From positions 372,001 to 436,000 of the forward strand of contig OZ237741.1 of assembly GCA_965178125.1 (NCBI GenBank): DNA of 64,000 nt, in the 5' to 3' direction. A model generated the notes under the pieces. That model was given only the letters and a program-made list of their open reading frames with translations. It searched no databases and was not told the DNA's origin. Both the position numbers and the translations under genes were made by a program. The DNA comes from Bilabrum cf. latius. Taxonomy: Eukaryota. Numbering within the stretch: position 1 is the stretch's first letter; each line of letters begins with the position of its first letter. Below are positions 1 to 64,000 of this stretch, piece after piece.

Positions 1-1
1 C

Positions 2-1558
2 GGCGCTGTGCACCGAGCCCTCGTGGTGGGAAGCGGCAAACAAGTGGCAGTGAAGCGCATCATGCTGCCCGAACAGTTCAGGAAGCAGTGGCGGGCGGCT
101 ACGGCAGCAGGCTCGGAAAAGCCTGAACTGGGCGCTGCTGCTGAAGTGAAAGCGGCCGAGTAGCTACGATCTATGCTGGAGTAGCAGATGGACAGTGCGC
201 GTGGTTCGGCAGGAACGGGCTGGAGTCCAACCTCATCTAGGAGCACCCCATCCACAGGGCCGACCGCGAGGCAACCCTCGGCCACTACTTCGGACAGCAA
301 GTCTCTTTGGATTGGTGGCAGGAGTTCAACATATGGAAAGAGCCTGAAAACAAAACATGCTGGCGCTACCGGCGATGACAATGACCACAGAGGCAGGTCT
401 GATTCGCGGGAGACGACCCCGAGCACGCTGCACGCACTCAAGCGCGTGCTGAAGACCAGCGGGTCGGCCGCTGCCACGGAAGTCCGCGAGATTTTGCGAG
501 AGGTTGATATGTTGCGCAGGCTGAGACACCCCCACATCGTGCAGTATCTTGGTGCTCGCGTGTCGAGCGATGGTGGGCACCTGGATTTGGTGATGGAGCT
601 CGTGGACGGTGGGACCGTGTCATCCATGCTCAAGGACTACGGCCCCATGGATGAGCAGCTCGCATCTGCTACCACCAGGCAGCTCTTGCTGGGCCTGCAG
701 TACTTACATGACAGGTGCATCATGCATTCTGACCTTAAGCCAGCCAACGCGCTGCTGACTTCGGGAGCTGTGGTGAAGCTCGCGGACTTTGGCTGTGCCA
801 GGCGGATTGACGGCCTGGTCAACGGCACTCTATCATCCACTTCTTCCAGCGAGTTGTCTGAAAGCAGGGCTGGGACCGGTGCGAAGAGTTCTGGGTCAGA
901 GTCGGGGAAGGCCTAGACGAAGCCAAGCTCGCGGTCTATTCGGGGCACGTTGCCGTACATGGCGCCAGAGGCAATCCGGGGCGAACTCACTGGACTTCCT
1001 TCCGATATCTGGGGCGTGGGTTGCACGGTCCTCGAGATGCTGACCGGCACTATGCCATGGATTGACCAGTTCGACAACCGCATCGCGCTGATGTTCCATG
1101 TCGGGCACACCAGCAACCATCCTCCTATTTCAGACGCGATCTAGGGCCAGGCGCGTGACTTCCTTGAAGTGTGTATGCGCGCCGATTCCAAAGAGCGGCC
1201 GACCGTCAGCACGCTCCTTGAGCACCCTTGGATCCGCAAGTATGCCAGCAGCTCACGGCAGGGGCTGCGCTCGGTCCTGTCCTTCAAATCTACCGGTTCA
1301 TCGGTACATGGCTCGGAGGCCGTCGGGTCGAAGGTTACGCGAGGCTCGCCCGGATCGTCTGGACAAGCGGCAGCGCATCTTGACGAAAGTCACGTTGATG
1401 TCGGGGCGGTGCCAGCCCTCAGCCCGGGAGCTACTTCAACCGAGGCCGGAAGTTGGAGCCCTAGGTCGCTGCTGGCTGTGGCGAGCATGGTCCGGAAGTT
1501 GCGTCGAACAAGACGCCGGAGAGGTGCTTCGCCCGTGTCACAGGAGTCACGTGGATAA
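2..1558 (+). CDS. Ser/Thr protein kinase, STE11/MAP3K-like (5'-partial; TAG=Gln)
   Basis: One frame from nt 2: GAVHRALV..QVAVKRI, REVDMLRRLRHPHIVQYLG, HSDLKPAN, VKLADFG, GTLPYMAPE, SDIWGVGCTVLEMLTG, ERPTVSTLLEHPW. Interrupted only by TAG at 161, 182, 914, 1142; ends TAA 1556-1558. Confidence 0.9.
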
Positions 1559-1706
1559 ATAGTCAGAGCGAAAAGTTGTTTTTAGATCTAACCACAATTA
1601 GGAACAGATCTGATTAGAAAATAACCTCGCAGTGCACTTAGTTTCAGGCCTATGCTAGCTGATCACATATGGTCACTTCCCACGCAAACCCAAACATTTC
1701 CAAAAC

Positions 1707-4700
1707 TTATTGCTAGTCTTGATCCTCCTCCTCGCGCTGCCTTCTATTGAGAACACCAAGCGGCCCTGAGGGCTCGAACTCGTACCTGGACGGGTCCAAG
1801 AGGATGCTTGACTGACGTCTTTGCATCCCGCTCTGCTGTGGGGCCGGCGGGTCCGAGGCGGAGCGCCCTGGCCGCACAGCCGCACTCCCCGCTCCTCCGC
1901 TGTGTCCGCGCTACTCACCCTCTAAATCTCTCACGATAATGATCCCGTTGTTGGCAAGGAAGTGCCTCACGTCGTCCACCTCCCCGTCCCTCTCACCACC
2001 AACGACACCACTGGCATCACTGTCGGAGTATCCAGCTCCAATAGCGCCCGCTGCCCCCGCACCAATCACAGAATGCGCACCTCCTCGATGCATCTCTACC
2101 AGGCGCTGTTGCTCCCTAGCCAGTTGTCTCTGTCGCACCGCTTCGGCCATGCTAGGTGTCTCTCGGATGATCTGCTCGTCCGTCAGCTCCCACGGTGACC
2201 GGATCGCGAGCATGCTTCGAGTGCGCCCGGCACATCTACCCGGAGTAGATGGCGCGGACCGCACGCCTCCTCGCGCGCTGTCCGAAGAATGCTGTCCCAG
2301 GATAGAGCTCGTTTGAGCCTCTGCTCCCGGCTTACTCCCTGCCGTGGGCAGCTCAGACTCAGTAGGTTGAGAGTCTCCGTCGGTCGTGCCGACGTACATG
2401 GCGGCACCGTCTTCTTGCACAGGGGTGAGCGTTCTCCCTCTGTGCGCGAGTCGGCCTGGAAGAGCACTGTGCCTCCTGGATCCCACCATGCCTGGCCTGG
2501 ATGCAGTCCCCGCAAATCCAAGGTACTGCATCGTGTTCTCGTCTAGGTCTCGAGACGACATGACCCTTGGCATTGAACGTCGCTGTCGCTGCCCCACGGG
2601 AGGCTGCATGAGATCGTCTTCCGTAAAAAGAGCCACTTCTGTGCCGGCTGCAGAGGCATCGCTGGATGCGGACTGGCGCCGGGATCTGTCTCCCTAGTCG
2701 GGCGCCGCGCCTGTGTCCGTGCGCCCTAATGCGGCACCGACCGGCGCTGTCCCCTTGCGCAAGTGATGGAGGTCTGCGCCGCCTGCAACGGCAACACCAG
2801 CAGCATTGGCACTTCTCGCGGACAGCATCTTTCCAATGGAATCGTCCGGCATGTCCGCTGTGTGCCCGTGTTGGTGCCGCCGAAGCACAGCCGTCGAGAA
2901 CCCACCGAATCTCCTGCTCTGCAGTGGCGCGATTGCAGCAGAGTCCTCTGGAGATTCAGACCTAGGTTCTGCTCCATCGGAAAGTGGCAGCGACTGGGAG
3001 TCAGCGCGAGCTGTTGCGGGTGGAGGAGGGGTCATGGACGAAGGGCCACCTTGGACCGATGCCACCACGCCCGCCTCGTCGTGGACTGAAGAGGGACCGT
3101 CAGACGCAGACGTACCCAGCGCTAGCGGGGGCACTCTTGGAGTGCCATCCGAACTGCCTGCTCGGCTGTGGCTATCGGCGTCTTTGCCGAACTGTGGCAG
3201 GAGCTGGGGTGACAGCCCAAAGTCGTTCACCTCTAACGTCGACGGCGGTCGCTGCGCCTCCGATGCTAGCTTGCTGTCTCCGGAAGACGGCGAAGCGTCA
3301 GCAGTGAGATCGGGGCGGATGCCAAGCCTCGTGCGGTCTCTGTCCCCCGCAGGGGCCGTGTCCAGCCTGCCTACCTTCGGCGGTAGCTTGCCACCGGTAG
3401 CAGCATTCTTTCCGGTTGGTCGCTGCTGGGAGTCTGAACGGGACCGACCCAGCTCAGTCAGCTGCACTGGCCCCTTGTCTTCCTTCGCACTCGGGTCGCC
3501 TTCTGCAATTGGCTTCTCTCCAATGATGGGCTCGGTAGCTTGAGTGTCTCTTGCACTCACACCAGCACCAGACACAAGCGCGGATCCCTCCGCACCACCA
3601 GCGGCAGATCCAGCTGGTGGTGGCACGGCTCGGGGTGGAGGTCTCGGGGGATTGATTGGACGTGTTGATCTGTGCGAGTCCCAATGCCCGATCGCCCCTC
3701 CGATATCTTCATCTCTAGAGGACTCATCCTCGTGGTGCCACAGCTGCACGACGCTCTCGTCGTCCTTGGTGTTGATCGTGCTGTGGCCGTCGCTGTTGGT
3801 ACGTCGCGCCCGACCTGGGAATTCGCCAGGCGCGCTGCTTGCAGCAGCTGCTGCAATGCCGCCAACGCTGCTCTTCGCTCCCATCTGTTCGTCTCTCCGA
3901 ATGAACTTGCCGAGCCCAACCAGTCCCGTGGGCAGCTCAGAGGCAGGCACGCCGCCCATCTCGTCGTCTCGAGCATGGTCCACAAACGAGTCCCCTGCTC
4001 CACCCCTGCGCAGCCGACTGCCCATGGCAGAGCCACGATGCCTGCCAATGCTTTGCCGAACAACTGCACCATCCCTCGGCCGCTTGCCAGGATATTCTGC
4101 CGCGTCGCTGCTGACCCGGGCCCTGGCTTCAATGTCAGCCGCGGGCTTGCGGTCGCTCCGCCAGCCAGGCTTTTCGTCCCCATAAAACCGCATGCTCTGG
4201 TTGCGCCAGAGCTGCCGACCTGGACCACCACCCGGCACTGCGCTCTGCATGCGCCGCATGCGGCCAGCAGCACCGCCACCCTCCATGCTAGAACCCCCTG
4301 CTGGTCGCATTGACAACATGGTGGCCCTTCGGGCGAGATCGCTCGGGGACTTCCTGTCGCCATGGCCCAGGAGACGCTCGTTCTGGCGGTTTCTGTCCAC
4401 CCACGGCTGGCTCACCATGAGATCCGACGCCAGGGCACTGGCAGCAGCGCCACCTAGGGTGTGTCGCCTTGCCTTGCCGCTACCTTCGTTGCTGTTGCCT
4501 CCCCAATCGAGAAGTTGGCGAATTCCACTCGCAGTACGGGTCAACAGCAGCCTACCATGGGCAGCGATGGATCCTTTGCTTGCCGCAGCCTCGTCCATTC
4601 TCCTCTACAGCCTGTGCTCTGCCTCCTCTTCCTCTTTGGTTGGTAGCAAGCCCCTCCTCTGCTGGTGTTCAATCCACTGCGCCATTCCCAGAATGTACCG

Positions 4701-6119
4701 CTCCACTACTTCCGTCTCCCACTCAGACTCGTCCAAATCGATGAAACTCTGAGCCAGCTTCTGCCGCAAGCTGGCCAGGATGCGGGTGATACGCATCAGC
4801 GGCTTCACGACGAAATAGCGAGTCTCTCTGTCAGACAAGACTATCGATAGCACCAACACCACCAACACCACGGATACATACACCAGGTTGAAGACCGACC
4901 TGGCGTCAGACTCCGACTTGATGTCGAACGTTATCTCGTCGCGCATGCCCAGCTGCTCGATATCCACTCGGAACAGGTCGGAGCATCGCACATTCTCGAG
5001 GTTCGCGTCTCGGTACTAGGTGCCGTTCAGTCTCACTCGCATAAAATCGATGCCAGTTATTGAGTCAACCGTACTGATAGCGTTGTCGATCGACCCCAAG
5101 TCGATCGCAGGCTTTCCAGCCATGAAAGCAAGGAGGCTGGCGATGGATTCCTTCCCCCGAATGCTCTGCGTCTCGTTGACAGCAAACGGTAGCGTAATTG
5201 ACAGCAGTAGAATGATGTAGACCACACGAACACTCGATAAGAAAGCCAGATGCCTTCCAATCCGCGTGGCCTGCGTGCTCTTGTCGGCAGACAGCTCGTC
5301 CCCCATGGCCTCGTCCAGCCTCTGCTCCTTCTCCTCCTCTGCATTCGGTCTGCACCACTGTGTGACCACTCCGAAGGCTTTAACGAGAGCGACGAGGCGG
5401 AGGGCGCGCACCACCCGGAGTGCTCTCCCGCCTTGGCGGACGAGCCGAAGCGTGCGGCCCGCTTGCGTCACAAAATCGTTCGATTCCACCACGCTCTCCG
5501 CACCGCAATCGCCACCCCCGCCGCCCTCAAACAGGTCACCGTATGGGATAGCAATGGCGATGGAGACGGTAGCAACAAGGTCAAGGACCCAGAAGAAGGA
5601 CAAGAAGTACCCACGGCGAGCGAGCGATGCCAGTACGATCTCGACAGCGAACACGCAGACGCAGATGAGCAGCAGGGAGTTCACAATATCGTCAGACCGC
5701 CGATCTGAGGCCAGTTGCGCGATGTCTGGAGCAAGCAGGGACACAAGGGTTGCGCATGAAGTACCAATGACTACCCATTGCTGATCAAGTACGTCCTACA
5801 GGCAGTTTCGGGACTCGGCAGACAGCCAACTGGTGCTGCAGATTGCCTCGGATACACCAGCAGCGCCGCAATCACAACAATCATCATCCCCTGACGAACT
5901 CCGAGCTCCAGTCATATGTTTAGTAGTCTTCGTATTCAAAGCCTGGCTTGCAACCCACCTGGCACTGTCCTACCTGTTTAATAAGACGTCAATGTCAGGG
6001 CTCTGTGCAGGCCGGTTTGCCAATGGCATCTTAGCTGGCTATGATGGTTGCTGCTCGCGAGTGGCAGCCGTACCATCCTTCTATTCACTGGACTGGCTGC
6101 TCGTTGTAGCCTGTTTCAT
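1707..6119 (-). CDS. Membrane protein with voltage-sensor-like ion-transport domain resembling the N-terminal half of protist ion-channel/adenylyl cyclase fusions; long low-complexity C-terminus (~1470 aa; TAG=Gln)
   Basis: ORFs 5016-5744, 4605-4991, 2694-4598, 1911-2636 are in one frame joined by TAGs; ATG 6119, TAA 1707-1709. Motifs VFAVEIVLASLARRGYFLSFFWVLDLVATVS, Arg-rich S4-like RTLRLVRQGGRALRVVRALRLV, VVKPLMRI, WETEVVE. Start codon uncertain. Confidence 0.7.
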
Positions 6120-6415
6120 GTCATAAAGACGCACAAGTCGCGGGGAGTTTTTGGTGCCCACCGGTCGATTCGTAGCTAGTAGTTACAAAATGGGCCTCGG
6201 AAAGCGACGCACCTGAACGAAACCACCACTGCTTCGGAGATCGATTATTCCAAACCTTTCAAACAACGGATTGGTGTTATCAAACAACCTATTGCTCTCA
6301 ACTACAGCGACAATTCTGATGCGTAGATTTAACCGGATTTCGATGGTTCACGTAGTAACGAGTAGTTAGAAGCGAAGAATGGAACTTCGCCCGCACAAAC
6401 ACTTTAATAGCATTT

Positions 6416-9400
6416 ATGACAGATGCGGTCGACATATCGTTATCAAGTATGTCTCAATAGCTCTCGGTTGGCAAAGATCCGTGTATCTCGACTCGATTCA
6501 ATCGGTACGTAGTTTCAACGTCCGGCAGCACACCACTCTTGACTGCGCTTAGCGCTGGCAACAAAGCGGCAGCCTCGGCCCTATTAAAGCATGGCGCAGA
6601 CCCATATATTCTTGGGTCTGACCGGCTGTCTGTAGTTCACGCGGCTGGAACTGGTGGTCTGCTGGAACTGCTCGAGCAGTTGCAGTTGCCGGCAACTTTT
6701 ATTCAGCTGCAAACTGTCGCCGGGAACACGCCACTTCATGCAGCGTGTTCTTCGAATCAGCTTCACTCTATCGACTGGCTGCTACGGAAAGGCGCAAATC
6801 CCAACCGAGTAAACAGAAAGTATAATACTCCACTGCACATTGCTGCGGCAAGCGGACACTCGTCCGCAGTTGCGATGCTTGTGCAAGCTGGGGCGAACCC
6901 TCGGGCCATTGGAGAGCATGGGCAAACTGCAATGCATATGGTTTCGAAGAAGGGTTCGGCAGGTGATGTCATCGGTGTTCTGAAAGGTTTGCAACAGAAA
7001 CAGCAGATTGAGGAGGCTGCCAGCGGTGCTTCTCAACAGGCTGTTGCCCAGAAGGGCCTGGCACTGGCAGTGGCCAGGGCAACCAATGCTGATACAGCAT
7101 GTGCGTTGCATCTTCTGAGTGTCCGAGACGACTATGGATGCACGCCGCTGCAGGTTGCTGTGGAGGCTCACAACATAGCTGCGGCAGGCGCCATCATCGA
7201 CGCAGCTTTAAGCTGCCGCCCCGTGGTATCTCAATCGGGCGGACGAGCCCCCGACCCCCGACCCACCGATGCATGGACAACTGCTACCGACACGAATGGT
7301 GGATCAGATGGTGGGGACCCGCTTACGGTCCTTGGCATGATTGGAGCAGCACCCACGGGTCCCGCTGCCATCATCTCAGCCGCGGCCCAGCAGAGCACCG
7401 CCAAGCTCACATCGACGGACTTTCCGCTCGTGCGCCCTGGACTAGACCGACTGCTACACACGCTGTGTCAGTCGTCTGCAGCCAGTGCGGTGCGAGACAT
7501 GCTAAGGCAAGGAGCCGACCCCTTCACCGTGTGCGAGCAAGGCACCTCGCCGCTGCAGAAAGCGCTGAGCCTAGGGCACGGGAGTGTGGCTGATGCCGTG
7601 GTCGACTGCATGGTAGCGGGAGCCAAGACCGACGCAGACAAAAGAGACCGCTTGAAGCAGCACATTGAATCCTCGATTGAGTCTGAGGGGGGCGGCAGAG
7701 AGCTGCTGGCTGTTGCGATTGCGCACATGTCGACCAGCCTGGTGAGGTATCTTCGTCAGCTAGGCGTGGGCCTGGAGCCGCCCGACTGCAAGGTGGTCCT
7801 TCCAGCCAGTAAAATGAGGTCCAAGAAAATCCTGCGGAAGTCACGCAAAGGCGTTGTTCCAGCCAGTGCTGGTGAAACCAGGAAAAAGAGACCGTTAGCT
7901 GCCTAGGATGGTTCTCTGGCTGCAGGTCTGGGCGAGCGCACGCACTTTTGCACTGTGTGCAGCAAGCGGTTTAGGGACGCAGCTCGTCTCAATAAGCACA
8001 TGGCTTTGGTGCACAAAGGCGCACCTCAGTAGGGTGGTGGAAAGTTACCATCCACATCGAAACCTGGACCAGCGATCGTGCGCCCTTTACGCAAAGGAAT
8101 GGGTATACAATCGAGGGTATTGGGTGGGCCTGAATCTGTGCACAGATCCCAGAGAGCCGCAAAGCCACTGCGAATTGACCGATCGGGATGTGGTACGGAA
8201 GCACCGGAAACGGTAGTTGGCCGCAAACTTGACGCTAGCCCCATCTCTAGCGACGAATCAGCAGACCCGAATCCATTCTCGCAGAAATCTGCCGATACCC
8301 AGCCTTCGCATGGCCCGCATGAGTCACCGTCATAGAAGGAGCCAGTTCCTGCCACGTGTGAGCTCGACATGAAGGTGCTAGCGCCAGCACCTTCGCATGA
8401 TCACGAGGCTTGGAATAACTTACTACCTGCACTATCTGTCGTACAGAATAGATCAGTTCGGACCAAAGGGCCCCTTCAGACTGCTTCAGACTTGGATCGG
8501 CTGTCCTCGTGGGAGGCCCAGCCTCCCACTGACGCCAATGGCTCATCGAACACGGTACGCGTCGAGGACGGGTGGGTAGACAAGCAACTCGCTGGCATGC
8601 TTGGGACTGGCATTAGGCAATCGGCATTCATTCATGCTATTGGAGGCAGCTCCCTTGCTGTTCTCAAAGCGTTGCTCGAGTCAACGTGCGCGAGCGCTTC
8701 CGTCGATTGGGTGCAGGTCCTCCTGGCGCGACCTGGAAAAGAAATTGGAAGGGGCTGTTGCCACTCGATTGCGCGAACCACTCCACTCGATTTTGCGGTG
8801 CAGATAGGCCGCGCCGAGGCCGTCAGAGTTTTGCTCGACTCGATAGTAGGCAACGGCGCAGGATCACAAGCTGCCAAACCGCAAGGTGGATCGCAGATCA
8901 GCATAGTTACTGGGATCGACAACTCCGACAAAGTAGGCCCAAGCAGCGGTGCAGGTACAGGTGGTGGGCAATCATCGTGTGGATCCGCAGTAGCCGGGCT
9001 GGATGCATTGGAATCAGAGCGTCGTGATAGGCTTCGCTGGTCAGCTTGGAAGTGCCTCGCACAGCAGAACAGAAGCGAGTGCTCACTTGTGTTCCTTCAA
9101 TTTCTAGGCGACGAAATTAAGGAATTAAAGGGGGGAAGTGACGGTGGTGTCCCTGCACTCGCAGCTGCGGTTTGCGGGGGACAAAATGCCACTGTGCGGG
9201 CACTGCTGGATGCAGGCGGTGTATCGGCCATTCGTGCTGCGCGGGAGGGCTTGTACGGAGGGTTCAACTTGCTGCAGCTCGCTGCTCGGTGCAAGCAGTG
9301 GGAGACATTGGTCTACCTCGTGGAAAAGCTGGAAGCTGTCGACATGCTCTCCGTGCCCATGACTGGACTTGGCCCGTACGACCGTGCTCCGCCCACGCAA

Positions 9401-10348
9401 TTCGTCACTGAGTTCGATTCGGTCCCAATCGATGCCAAGGCTCCGAGGCCGACGCCCGGCAAAACAAAGAGGAAGGCAAGGTCGAAGAGAGCCGCGGCGT
9501 CGAAGAGCAAGCTTGCTCCTGTGGAGCATCTGTCGCATCAGGAGCGGGAGATGGTCGCAATGAAGACGACCCCCCTAGGCATCGCTCTCATCACCTTGGA
9601 ATCCAGGGCAAAACAAGTGCCATCGGAGCTGATCTGGCTCGCAAAGAAAATGCCTGTAGTAGGTCCGCAGCTTGTCCACTTCACCATCGAAGGGCTGTAC
9701 AGGTCACTGAAGTCGTTATAGACAAGACACACTAGAAGCAAGGTGCGTGGGTTGGCCAGCTGGGCCAATTTGCTGGCTGTTCTTCTTGGCAAGGGCACGG
9801 GGCTGCATCCTTTTTACGACGATGGAGTGGACTAGTACTAGCCTGCCCATCTTGCTGAGGTGCTGTGGAGGATTAATGGTCGGGGTGTGGGGTCAGCTCT
9901 ATATCCTGTCTTGGACTCGTATGGGGAAGTTGCCTTTGTACCCGAGGCGTTTATGGGCACGTCAGTAAGTGCATTAAGAGCTGCAGGCGCGAGTGTCGAT
10001 GAAGTGCTAGATGAGACCAATAAGCTGAAGAATGTGAAGGTGAAGGAGGAGGAGGAGGTGAAGGAGGAGAAGGAGGAGGAGAGGGAGAGCGAGAGGGAGA
10101 GGGAGAGGGACGGCAAACTGGACGAGGCCAAGGGCAGTGCATCTGCCAGGGACCGCGGAACTGGACCGCCGGCCACCGTAGTAGCTCGCTTGCAAGATCC
10201 GCTTCCTGCTCTGTACGCCATGTGCGGCCCGTCAAAGTCCGGCAAGCTTCGGTTTGGGTAGAGGGTGGCTGCTTTTGCCGAGAGGGAGCTGGTGCGATTG
10301 CGCGTGCGTGCGATGGTGCGCTTTGCTGCTGCAGCAAGATCAGTATGA
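6416..10348 (+). CDS. Ankyrin-repeat protein with internal C2H2 zinc finger (~1310 aa; TAG=Gln)
   Basis: ORFs 6539-7906, 8078-8335, 8369-9721, 9860-10261 share a frame, joined by TAG; ankyrin motifs GNTPLHAAC, NTPLHIAAASGH, GCTPLQVAV; FCTVCSKRFRDAARLNKHMALVH at 7946-8014; first ATG after upstream TAA is 6416; TGA 10346-10348. Confidence 0.8.
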
Positions 10349-10430
10349 TGGATGCTGCCACGGATCTATCAACATTGCATATTAAAGAGTTTACAATTAT
10401 CTGTGCACGGAACATCCCAACGTGTCGCAG

Positions 10431-11031
10431 TCACTCTGCGTCGTCGCTGCCTGAAGCAGACTTTGCTGCCGTTTTTCTGTCATTTGCAGTGCCGAACCCC
10501 AACCAAGACCATCGTTTCTTCATCGCTCCTAGATGTGACATGCCTGCTATTCTCTTCTTGACCCTCGGTGCATCCTATTCGACTACTGAGCTGGGGTCCC
10601 GCATTGGAACCACTTTTGAATCCTTACCGAAGCCCAACGTGGATAGATCCTCGGGAGCCATAAGATTTCTTTCCATTCTACATTTCAAGTAAATCTTGCT
10701 TTGCTCCTTACATCGGTGATAAATGTTATCATTCTCCGCCATGCATACCATGAAGTCCTGTGCGGTATGGCATCAACACGTACGAGTGCGAGAGATGCAC
10801 AGGGTTTAATTTCCAAATAAAACTGAGTATACGAAGCGCTTACATGTTTGAACTACGTGCACTGCCCATGGTGATCGAGGGGAAATGCACCCCTTGCTAC
10901 GATTTGGTTATGATGGCAAGGTGACGGACACAGTGGGGTAAAATAGGAAAATACATTAGAATCAGGGAAAAACAATAATAATAAAAAATCGTACCTGGTG
11001 CAGTTGCGGGTAAAGCTCTTTGAGATGGCAT
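10431..11031 (-). CDS. COX19: Cytochrome c oxidase assembly factor COX19 (138 aa; exons 11031-10995, 10896-10844, 10757-10431; TAG=Gln)
   Basis: Spliced product MPSQRALPATAPARGAFPLDHHGQCT[TAG]FKHDFMVCMAENDNIYHRCKEQSKIYLKCRMERNLMAPEDLSTLGF...: FPLDH signature, twin CX9C, YLxCRMExxLM and LGF motifs. GT-AG introns 10897-10994 and 10758-10843 keep frame; TGA 10431-10433. Confidence 0.92.
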
Positions 11032-11146
11032 GTTTTGGAGTACTTCCAGTTGACGTGTTTTCGACTATCACTACAGTGCAATGCAACTTGGATGCACTGC
11101 ATGCATGCGTACGCATCAATTCCCATTTGCAGTGCAAGGGAAGAAA

Positions 11147-13402: not shown

Positions 13403-13558
13403 TAGCCCATGCCGCAGCGAATCCGGGACGGATCTAGTGAACCGATTCAGGGACTGCAAAGTAGATTGTAGACCAGCACCTCAGGAACATTCGTTGCTCT
13501 GTGCATTTCATGGAGCGGCCATGGCCTATCATCAATCATCGTATCAAATCTGGGTCCT

Positions 13559-16300: not shown

Positions 16301-16441
16301 TATAACAATTTCGTCCTGGGTAGTAAGTACTGTTGGATTTTTGCTGGCAGTGGGAAGGAAAAATCGACAAGAAAGCTTGTACGGTGTGATGAGCAGTTCC
16401 AGCACGGCCTATTTTCTGGCAACTTTATCGTATTTGGCGCC

Positions 16442-17770: not shown

Positions 17771-18032
17771 CCTGAGATGGTTGCCTGCTGTATAAACGTG
17801 GGTCAGCAAAGCGCATTGGTGCCTCAGATGACTGCAACCCAGTTGGATCATTCATTCATAGCCAGCCTCGATCGCGGCGGCGTCTGCTTCAACTTGAAGC
17901 TGCGGAACCGCCACCGTGACGGTTCAAACCATGTTCATCCATTTCTACCGACTTGAGTATTTCGATCCGAGTTGCTTGGTACGATTTTTACAATTATAGA
18001 AGCAGGCTTTTGCGAATCGCAGTGTTATTGGC

Positions 18033-24887: not shown

Positions 24888-25073
24888 TAAAATATACCAC
24901 GCCCTAAGATTTATTATTTATTGCTTTGGGGCGATATTGGGGATCGCCAGTTCCATGTGCTGGTCTGGTTTTCATATAAGCACACGTAACCATACAGAAA
25001 TGTCGGGGAAGAGTCCAGCGAACTGTCGAGCCAGACTGCCTTTGCCAGGTTAGTTACATTCCGAACAACAAGC

Positions 25074-38119: not shown

Positions 38120-38280
38120 GATAGTAGTAGGGATTGCGGCAGGTGTCGCAATTCGCGCCTTCTACTGCACTGGAAAAAGTGCAAAGCAACTGTGCCGCAC
38201 GGGGGTTCGCTTGTCTATGCAGAACGTTCCGAACAGCGAAAGGTCAATGCACAAGAACACATAAAATACGGAACGCACAG

Positions 38281-39948: not shown

Positions 39949-40140
39949 ACATGCCTGGCGAGGCGGCTTTGTACTGGTCGGCAAGTCGTGCGCATACCAG
40001 AAGTACACACAACCAATCTTTGGATCGCACACGATGGACTTCAAAAAAATGATAACAGCAAAATTTTGAAGAAATGAAATAACAAATTGTGGTTGGCGCA
40101 ATATGATGGTATGCGGAAGCTTGCGGATTTGCTGCTGTCT

Positions 40141-51007: not shown

Positions 51008-51189
51008 AACGAATCAGATAGAGGTCAGGAGGGCAGTTTTTTGGGCCCTTGCTTGATTGCACTCATCACACTGCAACACTCATCACACCAAGAATTATTT
51101 ATCACATACACGTTACTTTCGATAATACTAAATCGGAGTACCTCGCCACGAGCATATCCTTGCTTCGACTGGCGCAGGGAAGTTGGAAC

Positions 51190-54100: not shown

Positions 54101-54855
54101 TGCTCGGCCTCACCGCCTGCGCCGGCTCTATGATCCTCCTCGTGTTCGCCATGAAGGCCAACTTCGCGGCCACTGGATAGGCCTACGGTGGAACTGGCCC
54201 GCACGGCGTCGAGGGTACTGGACAGGAGGACGAGAGCTTCTTCCGCCACGTGCTGGGCAGCGGCCAGACCCACTGGATCACGTACGGGCACGTGCAGACG
54301 ATCATGTACCTGAAGATCTCCCTGTCGGACTTCCTGACTGTGTTCGCCGCACGCACCCGCGGCTGGTTCTTCGAGAGGCGCCCCGGGTACGCTCTGGCCG
54401 CCGCGTTCGTGTTTGCCACCTCCTGCTCTACCATCCTGGCCGCCTTCTGGCCCTTCAAGGAGTCCTCCAAGAGCGCCGCGAGCAAGGGGCACTACGAGAT
54501 GCAGCCCCTCAAGGACAGGGCCTTCGCCATCCTGACCACCTGGATCTTCTGCCTCCTGTTCTTCCTCGTGCAGGATGCCATCAAGGTGGCTACCTACTGG
54601 GTGCTCGACCAGCTGGACGAGAACCGCCAGCGCATCGCCGAGGTGGAGCGCAGGGCTGCCCTCACCAACATGGCCGCTAGCGAGGCCCGCGGCCAGGGAC
54701 TCATGACCGTCGGTGGCGCCGGCGGCGCAATCTCCGCGGGCGCGGCCAAGAAGTACGACGACCGCATCAGCAAGCTGGAGCGCGAGATCCAGCAGCTCAA
54801 GGGCATCCTGCAGCAGCAGGCCGGGGGGGGTGCCGCCGCCGCCGGCGGGCACTGA
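51190..54855 (+). CDS. PMA1: Plasma-membrane H+-ATPase (P3A P-type ATPase), 1026 aa; introns 51301-51592 and 53460-53752
   Basis: FWGPMP, LVPGDIV, DESALTGESLPV, IPIAM, LCSDKTGTLT, TKGAPQ, DPPRDDT, MITGD, MTGDGVNDAPALK, spliced TEPGLSVIIDAILRSRKIFQRM, ILNDGTII; single TAG 54178; TGA 54853-54855. Confidence 0.96.
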
Positions 54856-56214
54856 GGCAGTCGCTTGTTCACCGCAAGCGACGCGGGGGCAAGGGTCTTC
54901 CTGGATCCTTCTTGATTGCCGTTTGGTATGGCGCGGGTGCCTTGCGTGTGATGGGGTGCTTCCTGTGGTGCGGGCTCTCTCGCTCGGCGCTTGGTCGAGT
55001 GTGGGTCCCGCCCCCATGGAATGGCACTGCGCGGCTGGCTACGCCTAGGTGGGCAATCGAGCGGGGGTACAGTGGGCCGGTTTATGCTAGAGGCGGGCCG
55101 TCTCGGATCAAGCTGCAGGCGTGCACTGGGCTTGATCGCGAGGAGGCGGCAAGGGTGTGATCAGGTGCGACGCGGCGGCGCTGCAGTGCGGTGCACTGTC
55201 GTCCCCAGGTTGTAGGCCAAGACGGCGTTGGCTGAGGCGGCGGGACTGCCGTGGAGGTGCTGCAATGCAATGCACGCATCTCCCGGGTCCCGCTCGCCCT
55301 CGTCTTGTCCTGTCGATGGCTGTCAAGCTTCGCGGCCCGCCGACTGAAACGAGCTGTGATTGATACCTCGGTCTTTCCTCCAAGCGAGGAGAGAACGAGT
55401 TGACGTTGTGGTGCCATGCCACGTAGCAAGTGTTTTGCTTGCATCGTGGTGTTGCAAGGTCGGGGGATTACCGCGAATCCTGAGGCGGACGATGGCAAGT
55501 GGGCGCAAGGGTCTGACGGTGTGCTTTTTGCTGAGCTGCACGAGGTGGACGTTCAGCCTGGCAATAGTTGCGCCATGTATCACGTGTATGAAGTTTATCG
55601 ATAAGATGAGAAAGCAATCTGACTTTGTAGCAAGGCGATCAGTTGGGACGTCTATTCTAATCATACTGCTTCCTGGGCGGGGTACGTGCACCACGGCCAG
55701 TTTCTGCGCTATCGTTGTAGCACTCTTCGCCAGCAAGTTTCAGTAAGCAGTCAGTACAATCGCTCTCGGTCAGTACTTGGCTTTCCCAATCGCGTGCTTG
55801 CCTGATGCAACCTGCGCGGCTTTGCCAACAGCTGCTGCTGATGGCGACGCAAGTTTCTTCTGACCATTGCCCTCTAGCTTCCCCTGCGCAAGAAACGGGT
55901 ATTCTATCTTGATTCATGGCCCGACTGCGCATACATCACGTATATCCAAGGGAGGATACTAAATACAAGACGCTAGCTTACCATTAGGTTGAACTCCTCC
56001 TGCATCGATTTCGCTGCGCTCCCCACGAGAATGGTTGACACCGCGTCAAGAATATGTGTTAAACTCTCCATTCAAATGGTTACGTCGGACTGATATGCCA
56101 TTGGGAGTGAGAGAGGCCTGGAACGAGGACTGATCGACGGTGGTTCCGCAGGGTGGATCGCGCGGCGCACGGGTGCAGCGCAGCACTCCACTGTGTTGCC
56201 GCGTGCACTACACT

Positions 56215-59200
56215 ATGTCAGCTTATACTGAGGTCAGATACTATAACAGTACTGATGTTGGCTTGAGCGTGAGAGTGTTCGTGTCGCACATGGACACTCT
56301 TGAGTTCGATCGGTTGGTTGATGCTGCGCAGCCTCCTTTACCGAAGCCAGGTTACGTGCTGAAGGATGGATACGCTGGGGATGTTGATCCTGAAGACTGT
56401 CTAGTATCATTACAAATTGATAATGGTGGGATCGGTATGGTCACAACACCGGCTACTACGCAAATATTGCCACGCCGTTTTGCTGGCAGGGTCTGCTGGG
56501 AGCAATGGGTAACCCTGCCATTGAGATTTTCGGATTTGACACGAAGGTCTAAGTTAATAATGACTCTGTGGTCTCCCGGTCCAAGGCTACTTGCTGGAGT
56601 AGTGTTCAGTCTTTTTGACGAAAAGATGCGACTTGCTGACGGAATGAGAAAGCTCATTTGGTGGCCAGTTAGAGCCTCCTTTAAGGAGGCCTACCTCCCC
56701 GAAGCAGGATAGAAAGAAAGTACGACCCACGATCCGGTGGAAGATGTCGTTGAAGCAGCCATGGACGCAACTTGGGCGGGGTATGCCTCCAGGGTGCCGG
56801 ACCACGCCACGGACGAGGAGTACCTGGCTAGCCACATCCTGGAGCTCAGGGACCACGGCCGCATACCGAAGATACCATGGCTGGACAGATTCACACTGCC
56901 CATGTTGGAGCAAATCAGGGCGGGGACTGGGCGCCCCGGGGACCTTCCAATTTCGATCCCCGGCATGGGCGACGGCAATGCTGCTGGTGATGGCCGCAAG
57001 TCTGCAGCTGCGGCAGGCACCCCACCCGCTGATCGTGCGACAGCAGCTGCAGCATCATGTTCAGGCGAATAGAGCACACCTGGCACTGATTCTGAATCCA
57101 AGTACGACCCGGAAGCCACGGCTCGCATGAAGTCGGCCATGGCAGGCCTCAAGCCGCGGCCTCCCTTCGTTCACATTGAGCTTCCGAAACTCCCATACCC
57201 AGTCATCTATTACGATGCCCCCGCGCGGAGACAGGACGACGTGAGGCACAGCGGTGTAGGCACCGACGTAAGAGAGTTCCAGATGGCTGACGTGGCGGAG
57301 GCAGTCGAGGTCATGGCAGACGCGCTCAAGAGGGACCCGGTCGTACCCCCTGCGCTGCTGCCGGGCAACCACGGCGTGCCAAGGGCATCGCCCATGAAGC
57401 CGCTCAGAGGCCTCAACAGGCATCGACGTGGTATCAGAGCCAGTGCGCGGTCGCGCAGACGCCAGGCAGGATCAGGATCAGGATCAGGGGTCGATGCAGA
57501 ATCCGGCGCACCTGATGCGCCCGTTGTGGTTACTGCGCCTGGCGTGCCACAGGGGGCAGCGAGCGCAGCTTCGGGGGCCGCAAGTTCAGAGCTTACGAAA
57601 CCCGTGGCGGGTGCGACGGGTAGCAGTGGCGCTGCGGCGGGTGTCAGCGCCGGCAGAATAGCGCCAGCTGCTGCAGAGGCCAGCCAGAACAGAGCTAGCG
57701 ATCCTGCCAGCGGGAGCGGGGCCGCCCCACGAGAGACGGAAGCTAAGTCAGAAAACGATCAGGTCAGGCGCTACCCCGTCATGTGGAGATAGCGGTACGA
57801 TATCATCGCCGACCCTGAGTCGTACGGCAAGACCCCAGTCGACGCCATGGAGGAAGTGCTGGCTTCGGCTCTTGCTCGCGAGATGCCAGATGTACCAGAG
57901 CACCCATCGCCTTCGCAGCAAAGGCAGATCGAGCAGATCATCGCTGCACAGGGCATTGTAACGGAAACAAAGGACGCGACTCTACTCTGGAGATTCAGGC
58001 ACAGCCTGGTCTCGAACAAGCGAGCCATCGTCAAGTTCATGGAGTGTGTCAGGTGGCATCAGCCCACTGACGCCGAGAGGGCTCTGTCGCTGCTGCCGCG
58101 CTGGGCTGCCATCGACGTGGAAGAGGCTCTTTCGCTGCTCTCTCACAAGTTCAAGCATCCTACCCTGCGAGAGTATGCTGTCAGGGCATTAAATCGCGCG
58201 CCCGACGATGCTATTCAGCTGTACCTGATCCAGCTGGTGCAGGCTCTACGGTACGAGCCCAGCTTGCTGGGGCTTAGCGGACAGGCATCTGTCAGTGATC
58301 TAACGGGTGGTGGTGCAGGAGCTCCAGTGGGTGACCAGGCCAGGCTGGTGCAATAGGCCAAGCACATCCTCGCGACCGAGGGCGTGGTGCCGGGGCAGCC
58401 CGATGGCACCGGCCCCGGGGCATCGTCAGGTGCAGGGGCAGGAGTTTCGCGTGCTGTCGCCGGTGCCGGTGCCGGTGCCGGTGATAGCAACGATGTTAGT
58501 TCATCGGCACAAGATCATGGATCTGGTCAGGCCGCCAGCGGGGATGGCTCGTCAGGCTCGCCCTTGCAACGAAGCCCCCTTGCTATGTTTCTGATTCGAC
58601 GGGCATGCAGGAGCCTTCCTATCGCTACATATCTGCATTGGTACGCTACGGTCGAGACTAGCGACCCGCGCTCAGGCCAGCTGTACAACGATTTCCTGGC
58701 TGCGCTGTTCGCAGAACTCCCAAACTCGGCTGAAGGCCGTGCAATGGAGATGAAGCTAATGAAACAGGCCGAAATCAGCATGATGATTCTTGGTGCGGTA
58801 GCCGAGTGCAAGAAGATGGGACCCAAGTCAGAGAAAAAGAGACGGTTGAACGAAAGCTTGGAGCCGCATGGGTAGTACGGGAAGCACCTGTCAAACATTC
58901 GAGGTGGAGTCCACTTGCCGCTCGATCCCAGGGTAGTCCTGGTCGGTACAGAGCCCGGCAAGTGCAAGGTGTTCAGCAGCGCGATCTACCCCGTCTTGAT
59001 ACCTATGCGCGTCGACCACACCAAGTCCGAGCCTGGGTGGCACCTCACCAGCACAATGCGCTTCAAAGCAGAGGCGAAGGCGAGAGCAGCCGCTGTATCG
59101 GGCCAGGCACAAGGTGGTGCGGCAGCCGGCGGAGCGGCGGCTATGCATGCAAGCGGAGCTGGTAGCGCGGTTGGCAGCGTATCAACGACACTATCCAGGA

Positions 59201-60021
59201 GCACTGGCATGGGCGGCTCTGACTCGGCCTCATTGCCTCCCCCGCCCACCTACGATGTGATCTTCAAGATTGGCGACGACATGCGTCAGGATTAGCTTAT
59301 CCTGCAGCTGGTGGAGCTCATGGACCGTCAGCTGCAAGCGGAGGGCCTCAACCTGGGCCTGACCGTGTACAAGGTCCTCGCCACGAGCCTAACCACGGGC
59401 ATGATGGAGTGCGTGCCGGGGTCTGTTCCCATGGACCAGATCAAAAGCGACATTTTGGGGTATTTCAAGAGCTTTCCTGAGAACGTCGACCCCAGAGAAG
59501 ATCATGGTGTGAAGGCGGAAGTGATGGAGCGGTATGTGGACAGTTGTGCGGGGTACTGCGTCATCACGTACATCCTTATGGTCGGTGACAGGCACTTCGA
59601 CAATGTGCTGGTCAGGTCAACCGGGCACATGTTTCACATCGATTTCGGGTACGTCTTTGGTGCTGAGCCCAAGTCCTTCCAGCCGAAAATCAAGCTGACA
59701 TCCCAGATGATTGACGGGATGGGCGGGCCCAAGTCCAAGTACTACGAGAAGTTCCTGGACAGGTGCTGCCAGGCCTACAGCATCGTGCGCAAGAAGGCGA
59801 ACCTCTACCTTGCCCTCCTGGACCTAATGCGTGACGCCAACATCGAGAACATGGGCCCTGATCCTGACGCAACCATCGCCAAGATTCGAGACAAGTTTGC
59901 CCCGCAGCTCGACGGGGAAGCCGCCGACCGGGCGTTCCTGATGGAGCTGGACAATGCTGTCGCCGCATTGTTCCCGCACTTTACTGACTGGATCCACACG
60001 ATCGCGACTAGGCTCAGGTGA
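56215..60021 (+). CDS. VPS34: Class III phosphatidylinositol 3-kinase VPS34, 1268 aa (TAG=Gln)
   Basis: C2 WEQWVTLPLRFSDL, helical domain LLWRFRH..LYLIQLVQALRYE, kinase VIFKIGDDMRQD[TAG]LILQ, SCAGYCVITYILMVGDRHFDN, FHIDFGY; 6 TAGs; TGA 60019-60021. Confidence 0.95.
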
Positions 60022-60228
60022 TGTGGCGTTGGGCGCTGCGTGCGTGCAGTGAGCATTATGATAGGGGCCTCTTAGGGCAGGTACACGTCGTGGATGCTAC
60101 CCTCACTAGCACGTGCAATGTTGACCTGGTGATCCTAGTGCTGCCGTAGGCCAGAGCAGAGTAGAGCTGTATATAGATTTAGATTCCGGATACTCGACAA
60201 TGCTTGTGGTGCGGTACCTTTTTCTCTA

Positions 60229-60897
60229 TCACACACATCGCGAACGTAGATATACCGCAAGCAGTGCAGCTCCCCCCACGGAGGTGTAGCCCAGCACGTG
60301 CATTGGTCGCATTGGCCGGACGAGTCGAAACCCGCCGCCCCTTGTCCCCCTACCTCTTCTTCCGCAACTTGTCGACCACCTACAGGAACTCAACAGACTT
60401 CTCCCCGATTCCCCCCAACACGTCCACCATAAAGGGTACGACCCGCACGCCACTGCGCACCGCCCCTTTCTGTGTCCTCACATTCCCTGGACACCACTTG
60501 TCTTCTCCTTCGATCCGGACGCCGAGCACTCCGAGCTCGACGGGCCTGCCGTAGCTGACCAGCTTCGTGGCATGCGCGGCCCGCAAAGCAGATCCCTCAT
60601 GCCAGTCGCTGCCAATCCTCCACGGCGAGCGGTCCCATCGGTAAGTTGCCGCAGTAGAATCAACCACCATGACATCGATGAGATACGCCGTCCCCTCGTG
60701 CTCAAAGAACAGGTCGCCTCGTGGCACGAGCGGACCGCGCCGACCCGGCAGCCTGGCCACATGGGCCTCTGGATTGGGCGTCTGCCCGTGGCCTCGTGGA
60801 CCACCTGCTCGAGCACGTTGAGTACCCGGAAGTGACTGCGGCCTGGAGGGTCTCCGCAGACATGCTTGTCCTTGCGCGTGGCGCCGTGGCGAACTGA
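60229..60897 (-). mobile_element. Degenerate 3' fragment of a non-LTR retrotransposon with restriction-like endonuclease (RLE, PD-(D/E)xK)
   Basis: HVC..RSHFRVLNVLEQVV (frameshift) EAHV..PRGDL..YLIDVMVV..A.RAAHATKLVSY..VVPFMVDVLGGIGEKSVEFL resembles the H..C/RH..V/RPD/D/K..KY/P.V.E..G.G order of RLE domains; no RT domain; at least one and probably two frameshifts. Confidence 0.62.
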
Positions 60898-60929
60898 CTA
60901 GGTCAGTTCGACTACCTTGCCCTGCTTCG

Positions 60930-61666
60930 AAGATCTGTGTGTCGCGCCACGCCTCCCCACATGCACCATGCGTTGCCCCAAGAGGTTGGGGGGGACAGCT
61001 GCACGGCTGCGGCCGCGCTGCTGGAGGCGTGTCCAGACCTGGCTGTGATCAACAGGGCCAACACCAACGCCAAGACGGCCCTGACACAGGCGGTGGTCAA
61101 GCAGCATGAGGGCGTGGCTCGCCTGCTGGTGGATGCGGGGGCAGATGTGCGGCAAGCAGGACAGGGAGGGTACACCCCTCTGCTGGTTGCTGCGAAGGTG
61201 GGCAGTATACGGACCTGGTGCGCATGCTGCTGGAGGCCGATGCATCTGTGTGCAGCGTGCCGAACGATCACGGGGAGACTCCGCTGTTCTGGGCCTGTGC
61301 CAAGGGGCACGAGCAGGTGGCGGCCGCGCTGCTGGAGGCGTGTCCAGACCTGGCTGTGATCAACAGGGCCAACACCAACGCCGAGACGGCCCTGACACAG
61401 GCGGTGGTCAAGCAGCATGAGGGCGTGGCTCGCCTGCTGGTGGATGCGGGGGCAGATGTGCGGCAAGCAGGACAGGGAGGGTACACCCCTCTGATGGTTG
61501 CTGCGAAGGTGGGCAGTATACGGACCTGGTGCGCATGCTGCTGGAAGCTGGGGTAGACCCGCGGCATGCTGGGCATCCACAGCTTGAGACGCCGACATAG
61601 ATCGCTGCTAGACGTGGGCATGATGATGTCGCCCAGGCCCTGGAGATGTGGCGGCCTCCCGTGTGA
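60930..61666 (+). pseudogene. Ankyrin-repeat gene remnant, frameshifted, with internal duplication
   Basis: Ankyrin repeats (TALTQAV..HEGVARLLVDAGADV, GYTPLLVAA, GETPLFWACAKGHEQVAAALL, ETPT[TAG]IAARRGHDDVAQAL) lie in three frames, with shifts near 61205 and 61516; no convincing start; TGA 61664-61666. Confidence 0.7.
61009..61545 (+). repeat. Direct duplication of 226 bp (61009-61234 and 61320-61545), 2 mismatches
   Basis: Direct sequence comparison; offset 311 bp. Confidence 0.93.
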
Positions 61667-61972
61667 ACAGCTCGCCTTCTTCACCACAATCGGATGCCTA
61701 TGCCCAGATCTTGACATATTCATTTTTTATTTTATCATCTTGGAAATATTTTCATAAAGTTGAGTGGATTCGTCCCAGTACGAAGCACTGATGGCTGTCC
61801 CTCCGATCACTGCAGGCGGCGAAAGTGAGCCGTGGTATCCTGCCGCGGAAAAGGGTCTATTTCCCCATACTCAAAAGTCCTCGGTCACTTATTTATGCTG
61901 CGGATGCAAACTGTGTCCTGGCGTAGCGAATCACATGGAGACAAGCATGAATTAGGTCCACCCAGCGCCCGA

Positions 61973-64000
61973 TCAATCCAGCACCCCAAGTGCCCGCAGC
62001 TCTCGAACCCGGTCACCGAACCGCTTCTCAAGGAGCTCGTGCAGGGGTGCCATCCGTTCTGGGCGTACCTGGGCGTGCAACTGCAATGATGACTCGGCTA
62101 CCTGCATCTGCTCTCGCAGCGCTAGCCTGAGGCAGCTCACCGCGTCGTCTTCTATGCGTTTGCCTGCTGCTACCAGGGCGTTCACGAGCTCCAGCTTGAA
62201 TCGCATCGCGTCGCTTGCCTCGCTTGCTCGGCTTCTTGACAGCAGTGAAGAACCCATAGCGTAGTTTGGCACCCCGCCACTCTTGCGACGCATCACCACC
62301 GCGCCACCAGTTGCGGCGGATGCCGTGCGTCCGCGGTCCACGCCCAGCGCTGTCTTCAAGGCCGACTGAATCGTCGACTCTCGGGTCAACTTCAACTCGA
62401 TGAAAACCTCAGCAGCTCTACGGACATATGCTCTTGATATTTCAGGAAACATGGACTAGTAGGACTGCTGCAGCATGGCTGGAAACCTGCTCGCCCCGCC
62501 TCCCACCCCTGCATCGATGACCCCTTGCAGCCGCATGGAGAGCGACTCTGCGGCTTCCTTGCCCTTGTTGGCCGCCTCTCTAGTCGCATCCTTCAGACGA
62601 AGGGTGCCGGTGGACACCTGCTCAAGCGCGATATCCAGAGGCGTCAGGAGTTCCTCCTCCACGAGCAGGACAGGCGATCGCCGGCGGCAGCCAGGAAACG
62701 GGTGCATGCTAGCCAAGTGCGTCCGCCGCGCCCACAGCACCAAGAGCTCTTGGGCACCGCGCACGTCTGCTGACAGCGACTACAAGAGCTACCCCTTGAT
62801 CTTGGGCCTCAGCTTGAATGGACGATACACCGTAAACACTCGCGTGCCGCTAGAGATGGCACCATCACGTACTATCTGAGGCAGAAGCGACTCAGAATCT
62901 GGCAGGAGCATGCGGGTAGGAAACATGTCAGGGTTGTATGCAGCTTCATCCGGCCCAGCTGCTTGCGACTGGTCGAAATCAGGGGCTACTGGTGACCCTG
63001 CACCATTCACGTCCTCTTCCTAGTCCTTCTCTATCTTGAGCTCGTCCAGTACACCCTGCGCGATGGCGGCCAACCGGCTGTAGCCAGGCACGCGTGCTCT
63101 CACCTCCATGCGAAACGCAGCGCTCGACTCCTCACGCACCTAAACTATGCCACCTGCAACCAGTCGCTGCGAAGCCTCCAGCAACTCGGCCTCGCTCGCC
63201 CGCTCCGCCGCGTTGTCGTCCATTGCCTCAAGAAGACCCTCAATCCTCCTCCGCACGTCAAGCTCTGCCGGCTCGGTCGACAGGAGCCCGTATGCCAGGT
63301 CACGCCTGGACGACCCGTACTTGCGCGAGCGAATAGACGCGTCACCCTCAGTGGATCCGCCCGATCCCTGGGCTGCCACGGCACCTCCAGCGAGGTGGTC
63401 CGTCCTCGACTCATCCGATGCTCCGATGCGTCCGAGCGCGGCCTGAAACGGTTCTTTCCAGCAGCCCGGCCACCTCTTCTGCAGCCTTTTCTCGAACTCA
63501 CCAATCCTCTCTTCCACAGACCCCTTAAGTATGAACACGCGGCCCTGCACCTGAGGAGGGTACTCATCCCCGCTGAACACGACGATGTAGTATTTGGCCT
63601 ACGCCCTGCGCCTGCCGTAGATCTGCTTGGTCAGGTCTGCCTGCTTGCGCAGCAGCGAGACGACCCTGGCCCCGCTTGGTTCCACTCTCTCATATCTCTC
63701 GCAGAGCGTCCTCGCGATTCCTCTAGCGTGCTCCCAGCACTGCGCCTGCTCCAACTTCGCAAGTGAGACCTAGAGCACAATCTCGAGCCGATCGCTCGCC
63801 GTCTGCTCCGGAAACAGGACGACGTACTAGCTCGTGTCTAGTCGCAGCAGCTGCCGCCTGGACTTTGAAGTCTCTTTCGCTGCCACGTTGATGAGTGCAG
63901 CAGGCAGCCTGTGCTTGGTCCACATTAATAGCTGCGGGATCTCAAACCAGTACCACGGCGGAGGTACCCCGGACACTGCATCGGCAAGCTCCATGAACCG
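61973..64000 (-). CDS. DOCK-family Rho/Rac GEF, DHR-2 domain (5'-partial; TAG=Gln)
   Basis: QAQCWEHARGIARTLCERYE, YYIVVFSGDEYPPQVQGRVFILKG, FTVYRPF, FPGCRRRSPV..EEELLTPLDIALE, LSMRLQGVIDAGVGGG; open to the window end with 8 TAGs; TGA 61973-61975. Confidence 0.85.

Follow-up and report, generated by a model that had tools for sequence, protein, structure and literature searches.

The 64,000-nucleotide stretch analyzed here, positions 372,001 to 436,000 of contig OZ237741.1 from Bilabrum cf. latius (hereafter the window), raises the question of what the codons UAG and UAA mean in the genome it comes from. Under the standard code, its open reading frames (ORFs) of at least 300 amino acids total 9,373 amino acids, with a longest ORF of 995. 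Reading TAG as a sense codon brings this total to 27,221 amino acids, the longest ORFs having 3,303, 1,785, 1,538, 1,492, 1,330, and 1,296 codons, and these ORFs hold ordinary eukaryotic domains from end to end, as detected with Pfam. This was not the case for the controls, as TAA as sense gave a total of 10,549 amino acids with a longest ORF still at 995, and TGA as sense gave many extra short ORFs and none that were longer. With the evidence described below, UAG is very probably a regular glutamine codon in this organism, and UAA and UGA are the sole terminators, a combination that corresponds to NCBI translation table 15.

Analyses of the 19 confident coding segments (17,266 codons) revealed a total of 103 in-frame TAG codons, and neither TAA nor TGA was found in frame. 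TAG is present in 17 of the 19 segments, and the two that lack it are exon pieces whose genes have TAG in other parts. It represents about 14% of the glutamine codons in the window and is evenly spread along the genes, with counts per gene decile of 14, 11, 6, 7, 15, 11, 4, 14, 9, and 10.

The letters themselves were compared with contigs of four sequencing runs from different studies over window positions 1-20000. These contigs are identical to the window except for one substitution (7777 G>C in run X6), which is not at a TAG. Runs X5 and X6 yield gene-sized contigs with spliced GT..AG joints and breaks between genes, in which the in-frame TAGs are all kept; one X5 contig, for example, covers the channel-like gene (1627-6302) with 0 differing letters. 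As a separate observation, identical letters over positions 1-20000 occur in runs filed under at least four different organism labels and in several studies; this organism might be carried along in other organisms' cultures, or it might have been sequenced more than once.

The amino acid encoded by TAG was read from 360 homologues aligned to the window, with TAG displayed as a stop and one count taken per distinct 17-residue context. The TAG located in the Q-loop of the ABCC transporter (22051) faces glutamine in 68/68 homologue contexts, and two others in the same gene, at 21292 and 22330, face glutamine in 53/76 and 70/94 contexts, respectively. The VPS34 gene carries a TAG at 59293-59295 within its DxxRQDQL motif (GDDMRQD-TAG-LILQ), which is aligned with glutamine in 81/83 contexts, and solved VPS34 structures agree. 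When the PPIL3 cyclophilin gene was compared with human PPIL3, one TAG (32945-32947) corresponded to the glutamine of GSQFF, and a second also fell on glutamine in the Protein Data Bank (PDB) alignment. Five TAG sites are well conserved and all are glutamine; the other TAG sites lie in variable or gapped alignment columns and are uninformative either way.

One scan of metagenome contigs identified three small contigs from a close environmental relative (L001, L004, and L008), whose plasma-membrane H+-ATPase is 86-93% identical in amino acids to that of the window (89-93% for L001/L004). L001 and L004 are also syntenic with the window, L001 over PIKfyve and the ATPase. The relative's PIKfyve ORF has 999 codons with TAG as sense, versus pieces of 356, 287, and 156 codons under the standard code. 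In four of the 12 orthologue codon pairs containing TAG, its partner is a CAG or CAA codon between identical flanks, and the exchange runs both ways: the PIKfyve TAG at 49291-49293 is CAA in L001, for instance, and the ATPase TAG at 54178-54180 is CAG in L004. A TAG of the relative's own, found in its ATPase (...PANTP-Q-KWDLW), is glutamine in 71/100 other homologues. The neighboring contig L003 (GC 72%, 63% identity) encodes a 1,060-codon ATPase and a 2,825-codon ORF without in-frame TAG, a pattern that fits use of the standard code, with too few gene ends to show TAG stops.

The best named match of the window's ATPase is from Cafeteria roenbergensis (64% identity), the next named groups being at about 50%, and the named VPS34 matches include Cafeteria and an oomycete among the high ranks. 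In a quick one-gene tree, the window groups with L001 (support 100), and the two are the sister of a clade of 10 rows that includes L003 and both Cafeteria paralogues (support 100); given the single gene, the long branch of the window lineage and the two paralogues of Cafeteria, this placement is a lead only. On this one-gene lead, the window appears to come from the nuclear genome of a heterotrophic stramenopile that is rich in GC and poor in introns and would have Cafeteria as its nearest named relative. Because the L001/L004 relative shares TAG as a sense codon and L003 fits the standard code, the code change probably arose after this lineage parted from Cafeteria-like forms and before it parted from the L001/L004 organism.

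Another environmental ATPase contig, L005 (137-3200, GC 0.64), is 45% identical to the window's ATPase. Its ORF has 1,016 codons with TAG as sense versus 460 under the standard code, and its two in-frame TAGs are opposite serine (68/83) and glutamate (86/88) instead of glutamine. This may be another code variant or may reflect sequencing errors.

Turning to UAA, the 17,249 internal codons of the 19 coding segments contain 0 TAA and 0 TGA, next to 141 CAA and 495 CAG, in line with an initial annotation of this DNA stating that TAA never occurs internally although CAA is used. Applying the CAA:CAG ratio (141:495) to the 103 TAGs predicts about 29 in-frame TAA codons, and the off-frame frequency of TAA (270/86,254) predicts about 54; none was observed. 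Directly downstream of 17 stops, TAA was found 7 times in 680 codons. Three genes, moreover, reach TAA before any other non-TAG stop: the kinase (1556, plus strand), the channel-like gene (1707, minus strand), and PPIL3 (32657, minus strand), the same three that had been listed as ending in TAA. The GC content falls at these TAAs, from 0.63 to 0.37 in the kinase, from 0.58 to 0.44 in the channel-like gene, and from 0.64 to 0.50 in PPIL3, a drop like that seen at TGA stops, and further TAAs lie closely downstream in two of the three genes. Beyond its TAA, the kinase frame contains more TAAs at 1586 and 1619, and the next TGA, at 1748, is already inside the convergent neighboring gene. Contigs of run X5 break at 1620 and 1627, between the convergent kinase and channel-like genes and before the TGA at 1748, which is a weak hint of short 3' untranslated regions, as contig ends prove no transcript ends. 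These sequence patterns support the view that UAA is not glutamine and acts as a terminator. As UAG is sense and UAA is not, the common code in which UAR (UAA and UAG) encodes glutamine is excluded for the window, and the earlier statement to that effect is borne out by the missing in-frame TAAs and by the TAGs at conserved glutamines.

Both strands of the window (GC content 0.59) are dense with ordinary eukaryotic genes, as identified with Pfam. Introns are scarce and short; they were found at 18194-18296, 10757-10842, and 10897-10994, where contigs contain the spliced joints, and at about 53462-53751 in the ATPase gene. The features whose ends were considered are listed below by position. 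The codon score given for some of them is a leave-one-gene-out codon-usage log-odds, which separates coding from downstream sequence only weakly.

2-1558, plus strand: protein kinase gene with its 5' end beyond the window (Pfam Pkinase, E 8e-51), 4 in-frame TAGs, TAA at 1556-1558.
1707-6182, minus strand: channel-like gene (Pfam Ion_trans), 9 in-frame TAGs, TAA at 1707-1709.
6359-10348, plus strand: first ankyrin-repeat gene (Pfam), 8 in-frame TAGs, ends in TGA.
10431-11050 (upper boundary approximate), minus strand: small COX19/CHCH-like gene, labeled by eye without a family search, with introns 10757-10842 and 10897-10994, whose CT..AC joints are spliced in run X6; 1 TAG, codon score +0.106 for the ORF at 10431-10772, TGA at 10431-10433.
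11054-13402, plus strand: hydrolase-like gene (weak EHN match below the Pfam cut-off), spanned by an X5 contig (11146-13445), 2 in-frame TAGs, ends in TGA.
13559-16570, minus strand: RCC1-repeat gene (Pfam), 8 TAGs in the listed ORF, ends in TGA.
16271-17770, plus strand: MRNIP-like gene (Pfam), 6 in-frame TAGs, ends in TGA.
17920-22533, plus strand: ABCC transporter gene (Pfam, PDB), with the TAGs at 22051, 21292, and 22330 and a GT..AG intron at 18194-18296 whose spliced joint is present in both X5 and X6; ends in TGA.
22815-24917, minus strand: deaminase-like gene (Pfam), 6 in-frame TAGs, ends in TGA.
24990-26702, plus strand: SERINC gene (Pfam Serinc, E 2.5e-65), 2 in-frame TAGs, ends in TGA.
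26925-29134, minus strand: ubiquilin gene with at least two exons (Pfam ubiquitin and UBQLN1), TGA at 26925-26927.
29371-31884, plus strand: 837-codon ORF free of TAA and TGA, 11 TAGs, neutral codon score, no Pfam family, ends in TGA; probably a fast-evolving gene.
32657-33235, minus strand: PPIL3 cyclophilin gene (PDB, human PPIL3, E 2.6e-48), TAGs at 32945-32947, 32921-32923, and 32903-32905, TAA at 32657-32659.
33407-38761, minus strand: RAD16/RAD5-like SNF2-RING gene (Pfam), 7 TAGs in the listed ORF, ends in TGA.
38281-40140, minus strand: ORF without a family name, 6 in-frame TAGs, ends in TGA.
40141-50849, minus strand: PIKfyve/Fab1 gene, made of a FYVE exon (50106-50849) and a 3,303-codon exon (40141-50049), with FYVE, Cpn60_TCP1, and PIP5K domains (Pfam), 20 + 3 TAGs, ends in TGA.
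51566-54855, plus strand: plasma-membrane H+-ATPase gene (Pfam), with an exon from 51566 to about 53461, an intron at about 53462-53751, and a last exon at 53752-54855, ends in TGA.
56134-60021, plus strand: VPS34 gene (Pfam, PDB), 6 in-frame TAGs including the diagnostic one at 59293-59295, ends in TGA.
60800-61757, plus strand: second ankyrin-repeat gene, a candidate structure with a tandemly duplicated exon, whose last ORF ends in a TAA (61755-61757) and may be spliced.
61973-64000, minus strand: DOCK-family gene (DHR-2; Pfam) with its 5' end beyond the window, 8 in-frame TAGs, ends in TGA.

Nineteen of these gene ends were tallied and gave 16 TGA, 3 TAA, and 0 TAG, reproducing the tally of the initial annotation; the 16 TGA genes are those so marked in the list, the hydrolase-like one being the gene with the EHN match. 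The second ankyrin-repeat gene (about 60.8-61.76 kb, plus strand) was left out, as its ORF, which ends in TAA at 61755, may be spliced. It is important to note that the absence of TAG ends follows from the analysis itself, which treated TAG as a sense codon. Where a family C-terminus is recognizable, TGA or TAA had been said to follow promptly, and the alignments bear this out. For VPS34, the median distance to the TGA is 0 nt in 116 homologue alignments running to the end. The RAD16/RAD5-like protein aligns with a RAD5 structure up to residue 951/952 at query residue 296/300, four residues before the TGA, and the ABCC alignments extend to query residues 1472-1487 of 1489. The SERINC C-terminus reads ...CFPDRSFGARDDY-TGA, with ...FPDRSFGARDDY as the last residues before the stop, and the last exon of ubiquilin ends in the family's RLLG (...AINRLLG-TGA at 26925). 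A TAA at 27881, which closes the first ubiquilin ORF, was considered as the end of that gene and rejected, as it is intronic.

Several points weigh against UAG as glutamine with UAA and UGA as the only stops. The whole reading is drawn from one 64-kb window. Only three genes end in TAA, none of them with a family-conserved C-terminus right at the stop, and PPIL3 has a 33-residue Ser/Ala-rich tail beyond its conserved end and before its TAA. The codon scores downstream of the three TAAs, at -0.19, +0.105, and -0.008 versus +0.12 ± 0.13 within genes, do not mark these stretches clearly as non-coding. Some TAGs are not opposite glutamine, as would be expected at variable positions: the third PPIL3 TAG faces lysine or glutamate, a transmembrane TAG of the ABCC transporter (21226) faces isoleucine in 60 contexts versus glutamine in 12, and the other eight orthologue pairs have CAC, CTG, TGC, GAT, CCA, GCG, AAG, and TCC opposite TAG, mostly in diverged stretches. 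A tRNA scan found 0 tRNA genes in the 64-kb window, and so no tRNA-Gln(CUA) there; the same scan of seven related loci returned only a tRNA-Arg (L010), and eRF1 is not among the Pfam matches of the window genes. Finally, the identification of runs X5 and X6 as RNA is a guess, as none of the listed runs containing this stretch is recorded as RNA, and X5 is labeled "probably DNA" though it holds a spliced contig.

The alternative that survives best is a dual meaning of UAG, which would mostly be glutamine yet serve as a context-dependent true stop in some genes, as in the ambiguous ciliate codes. Two gene ends are compatible with it. The channel-like gene ends GAC TAG CAA TAA, as had been noted and as is read directly from the sequence, which places a TAG (1713-1715) two codons before its TAA, and the last TAG of the ORF at 38281-40140 lies seven codons before its TGA. 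At these two ends, the window sequence does not reveal whether TAG terminates or is read as sense. Hence, the earlier claim of 0 TAG stops stands as a count, and the zero itself is not provable; occasional UAG termination could occur, for example in these two genes. No gene in the window requires a TAG stop. Chance alone would give about 0.8 such near-end TAGs (17 genes x 8 codons x 0.6%), so that nothing points to a dual meaning, and TAG is not depleted toward gene ends. The VPS34, RAD16/RAD5-like, ABCC, ubiquilin, and SERINC genes have their TGA at the family C-terminus with no TAG in between. The ambiguous stop/sense codes of Condylostoma, karyorelicts, and Blastocrithidia have several or all stops both in frame and terminating. 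The window differs from these, as TAG alone occurs in frame and TAA and TGA never do. We consider a dual meaning unlikely.

A second alternative, which we regard as very unlikely, would make UAA an unassigned, avoided codon and UGA the sole real stop. It would account for the small number of TAA ends (3/19), none coinciding with a family-conserved C-terminus. An unassigned codon in frame would, however, stall the translation of three intact, conserved genes, and the base composition shifts exactly at the TAAs. In the kinase frame, moreover, three TAAs fall within 22 codons, and the X5 contig ends before any TGA is reached.

UAG could also stand for an amino acid other than glutamine, for example one of those seen in other UAG reassignments (Glu, Leu, Ser, or Lys). 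Homologues with isoleucine, glutamate, alanine, lysine, or serine opposite TAG are found at variable sites, but all five of the well-conserved sites are glutamine and TAG is exchanged with CAG/CAA in the close relative, which leaves this possibility highly improbable.

The code in which UAR is glutamine (table 6) is used by many ciliates, hexamitin diplomonads, some ulvophyte green algae, and Amoeboaphelidium. Applied to the window, it would mean that TAA is merely rare in a GC-rich genome and that the three TAA "stops" are read through to the next TGA. TAA is indeed the rarest off-frame triplet (270, versus 641 TAG and 1,404 TGA in 86,254 codons), and UAR=Gln is the commonest nuclear variant code according to PMC5304391. 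This reading would nevertheless have to explain the absence of the roughly 29 or 54 in-frame TAAs expected, the return of TAA right after gene ends (7/680 codons), and the fall in GC at the three TAAs. Kinase read-through would hit two more TAAs and then the convergent neighbor before the TGA at 1748, and taking TAA as sense leaves the long ORFs no longer. Table 6 shares with the window the change from stop to glutamine, with tRNA-Gln(CUA) as part of its machinery (PMC5304391); it differs in that TAA is never in frame in the window (0/17,249) and closes three genes. Its probability is negligible. Equally negligible is the absence of any code change, with the TAGs removed by introns or RNA editing or lying in pseudogenes or assembly errors: the four short introns do exist, but 103 TAGs occur across nearly all genes and within conserved domains, four runs from different studies agree letter for letter with spliced X5/X6 contigs retaining the TAGs, and the relative shows TAG as sense too.

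For UAG as glutamine with UAA and UGA as stops, the mechanism would involve two changes. A tRNA-Gln with anticodon CUA would decode UAG and could not pair with UAA, as would follow from established knowledge of codon pairing. By analogy with Iotanema, recognition of a third-position G by eRF1 would be lost or weakened, and that of UAA and UGA would be kept. The initial annotation had proposed a release factor that discriminates UAA from UAG at the third base, which is plausible, and did not mention the tRNA-Gln(CUA), which by the same analogy would be equally necessary (PMC5304391). Regarding eRF1, the changes proposed are T32G in the GTS motif for Iotanema and an alanine at position 69 for the rhizarian exLh (PMC5304391).

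The code type is itself already known, and this organism is a further case of it. Nuclear codes reassigning only UAG to glutamine (table 15) have been described for Iotanema spirale, Hartmannula sinica, Trochilia petrani, and Protocruzia tuzeti (PMC5304391 and PMC11687900). The window has the same codon table, and a tRNA-Gln(CUA) and an eRF1 without UAG binding are also proposed for these organisms (PMC5304391, PMC11687900). It differs in belonging to another supergroup (by its one-gene placement, to the stramenopiles near Cafeteria) and in being GC-rich (0.59) with UGA as the main stop (16/19), whereas UAA is dominant in those ciliates and Iotanema, as described in these papers. Other codes that decouple UAG from UAA include UAG=Leu in the rhizarian exLh and in ciliate metagenome-assembled genomes, UAG=Ser in Scotinosphaera, and UAA=Lys with UAG=Glu in an oligohymenophorean ciliate (PMC11687900, PMC10553269). 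As in the window, UAG and UAA differ in meaning in these codes; the amino acid is different, since the window sites are glutamine. Phages with table-15 recoding also read TAG as glutamine and keep TAA and TGA as stops (PMC9523058), and the window is distinguished from them in being DNA of a cell nucleus, with housekeeping genes of eukaryotes and spliceosomal introns.

It was long held that nuclei lack codes giving UAG and UAA separate meanings, and PMC11687900 reports a handful of published cases, mostly ciliates. A full-text literature search that covered few subscription journals and no supplements found no nuclear UAG reassignment in a stramenopile. The window might represent the first nuclear code change in a stramenopile, namely an independent, fairly recent change of UAG to glutamine in bicosoecid-related flagellates, shared with L001/L004 at least, absent from the Cafeteria-like L003 and set in a UGA-dominated, GC-rich genome; we hold this tentatively, as a proposal nearly as likely to be right as wrong. 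A further, separate origin in another supergroup, and in a genome rich in GC, tests whether tRNA(CUA) and a small eRF1 change suffice and also which stop codon dominates after reassignment. In practical terms, gene prediction with the standard code breaks nearly every gene here (longest ORF 995 versus 3,303 codons), and table 15 is needed to annotate the genome of this organism and the environmental contigs of its relatives. The organism turns up in runs from several studies and so may be kept in culture; tRNA(CUA) and eRF1 would then be directly testable.

Some minor features of the window genes should also be mentioned. The H+-ATPase gene has a GC3 (GC content at third codon positions) of 0.84-0.88, versus about 0.65 elsewhere, and one TAG in about 1,000 codons; its exon from 51566 to about 53461 has 0 TAG and a GC3 of 0.88. 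This looks like TAG avoidance by a highly expressed gene, with numbers too small for more. The ORF at 29371-31884 has twice the usual TAG density and is followed, beyond its TGA, by a same-frame open stretch of 223 codons (to 32556). Beyond the TGA of PIKfyve (40141-40143), an open stretch continues in the same frame into the ORF at 38281-40140, whose first Met lies about 65 codons on; the two were taken as separate genes rather than as read-through because the intervening stretch looks non-coding and is AT-richer (GC 0.39). The acidic tail of the first ankyrin-repeat gene contains a short repeat or low-complexity stretch at 10022-10118, where the contigs of all runs break. Lastly, about 420 bases are duplicated in tandem within 60180-61760 (plus strand), repeating an ankyrin-repeat exon, and the same peptide stretches also occur in minus-strand ORFs.

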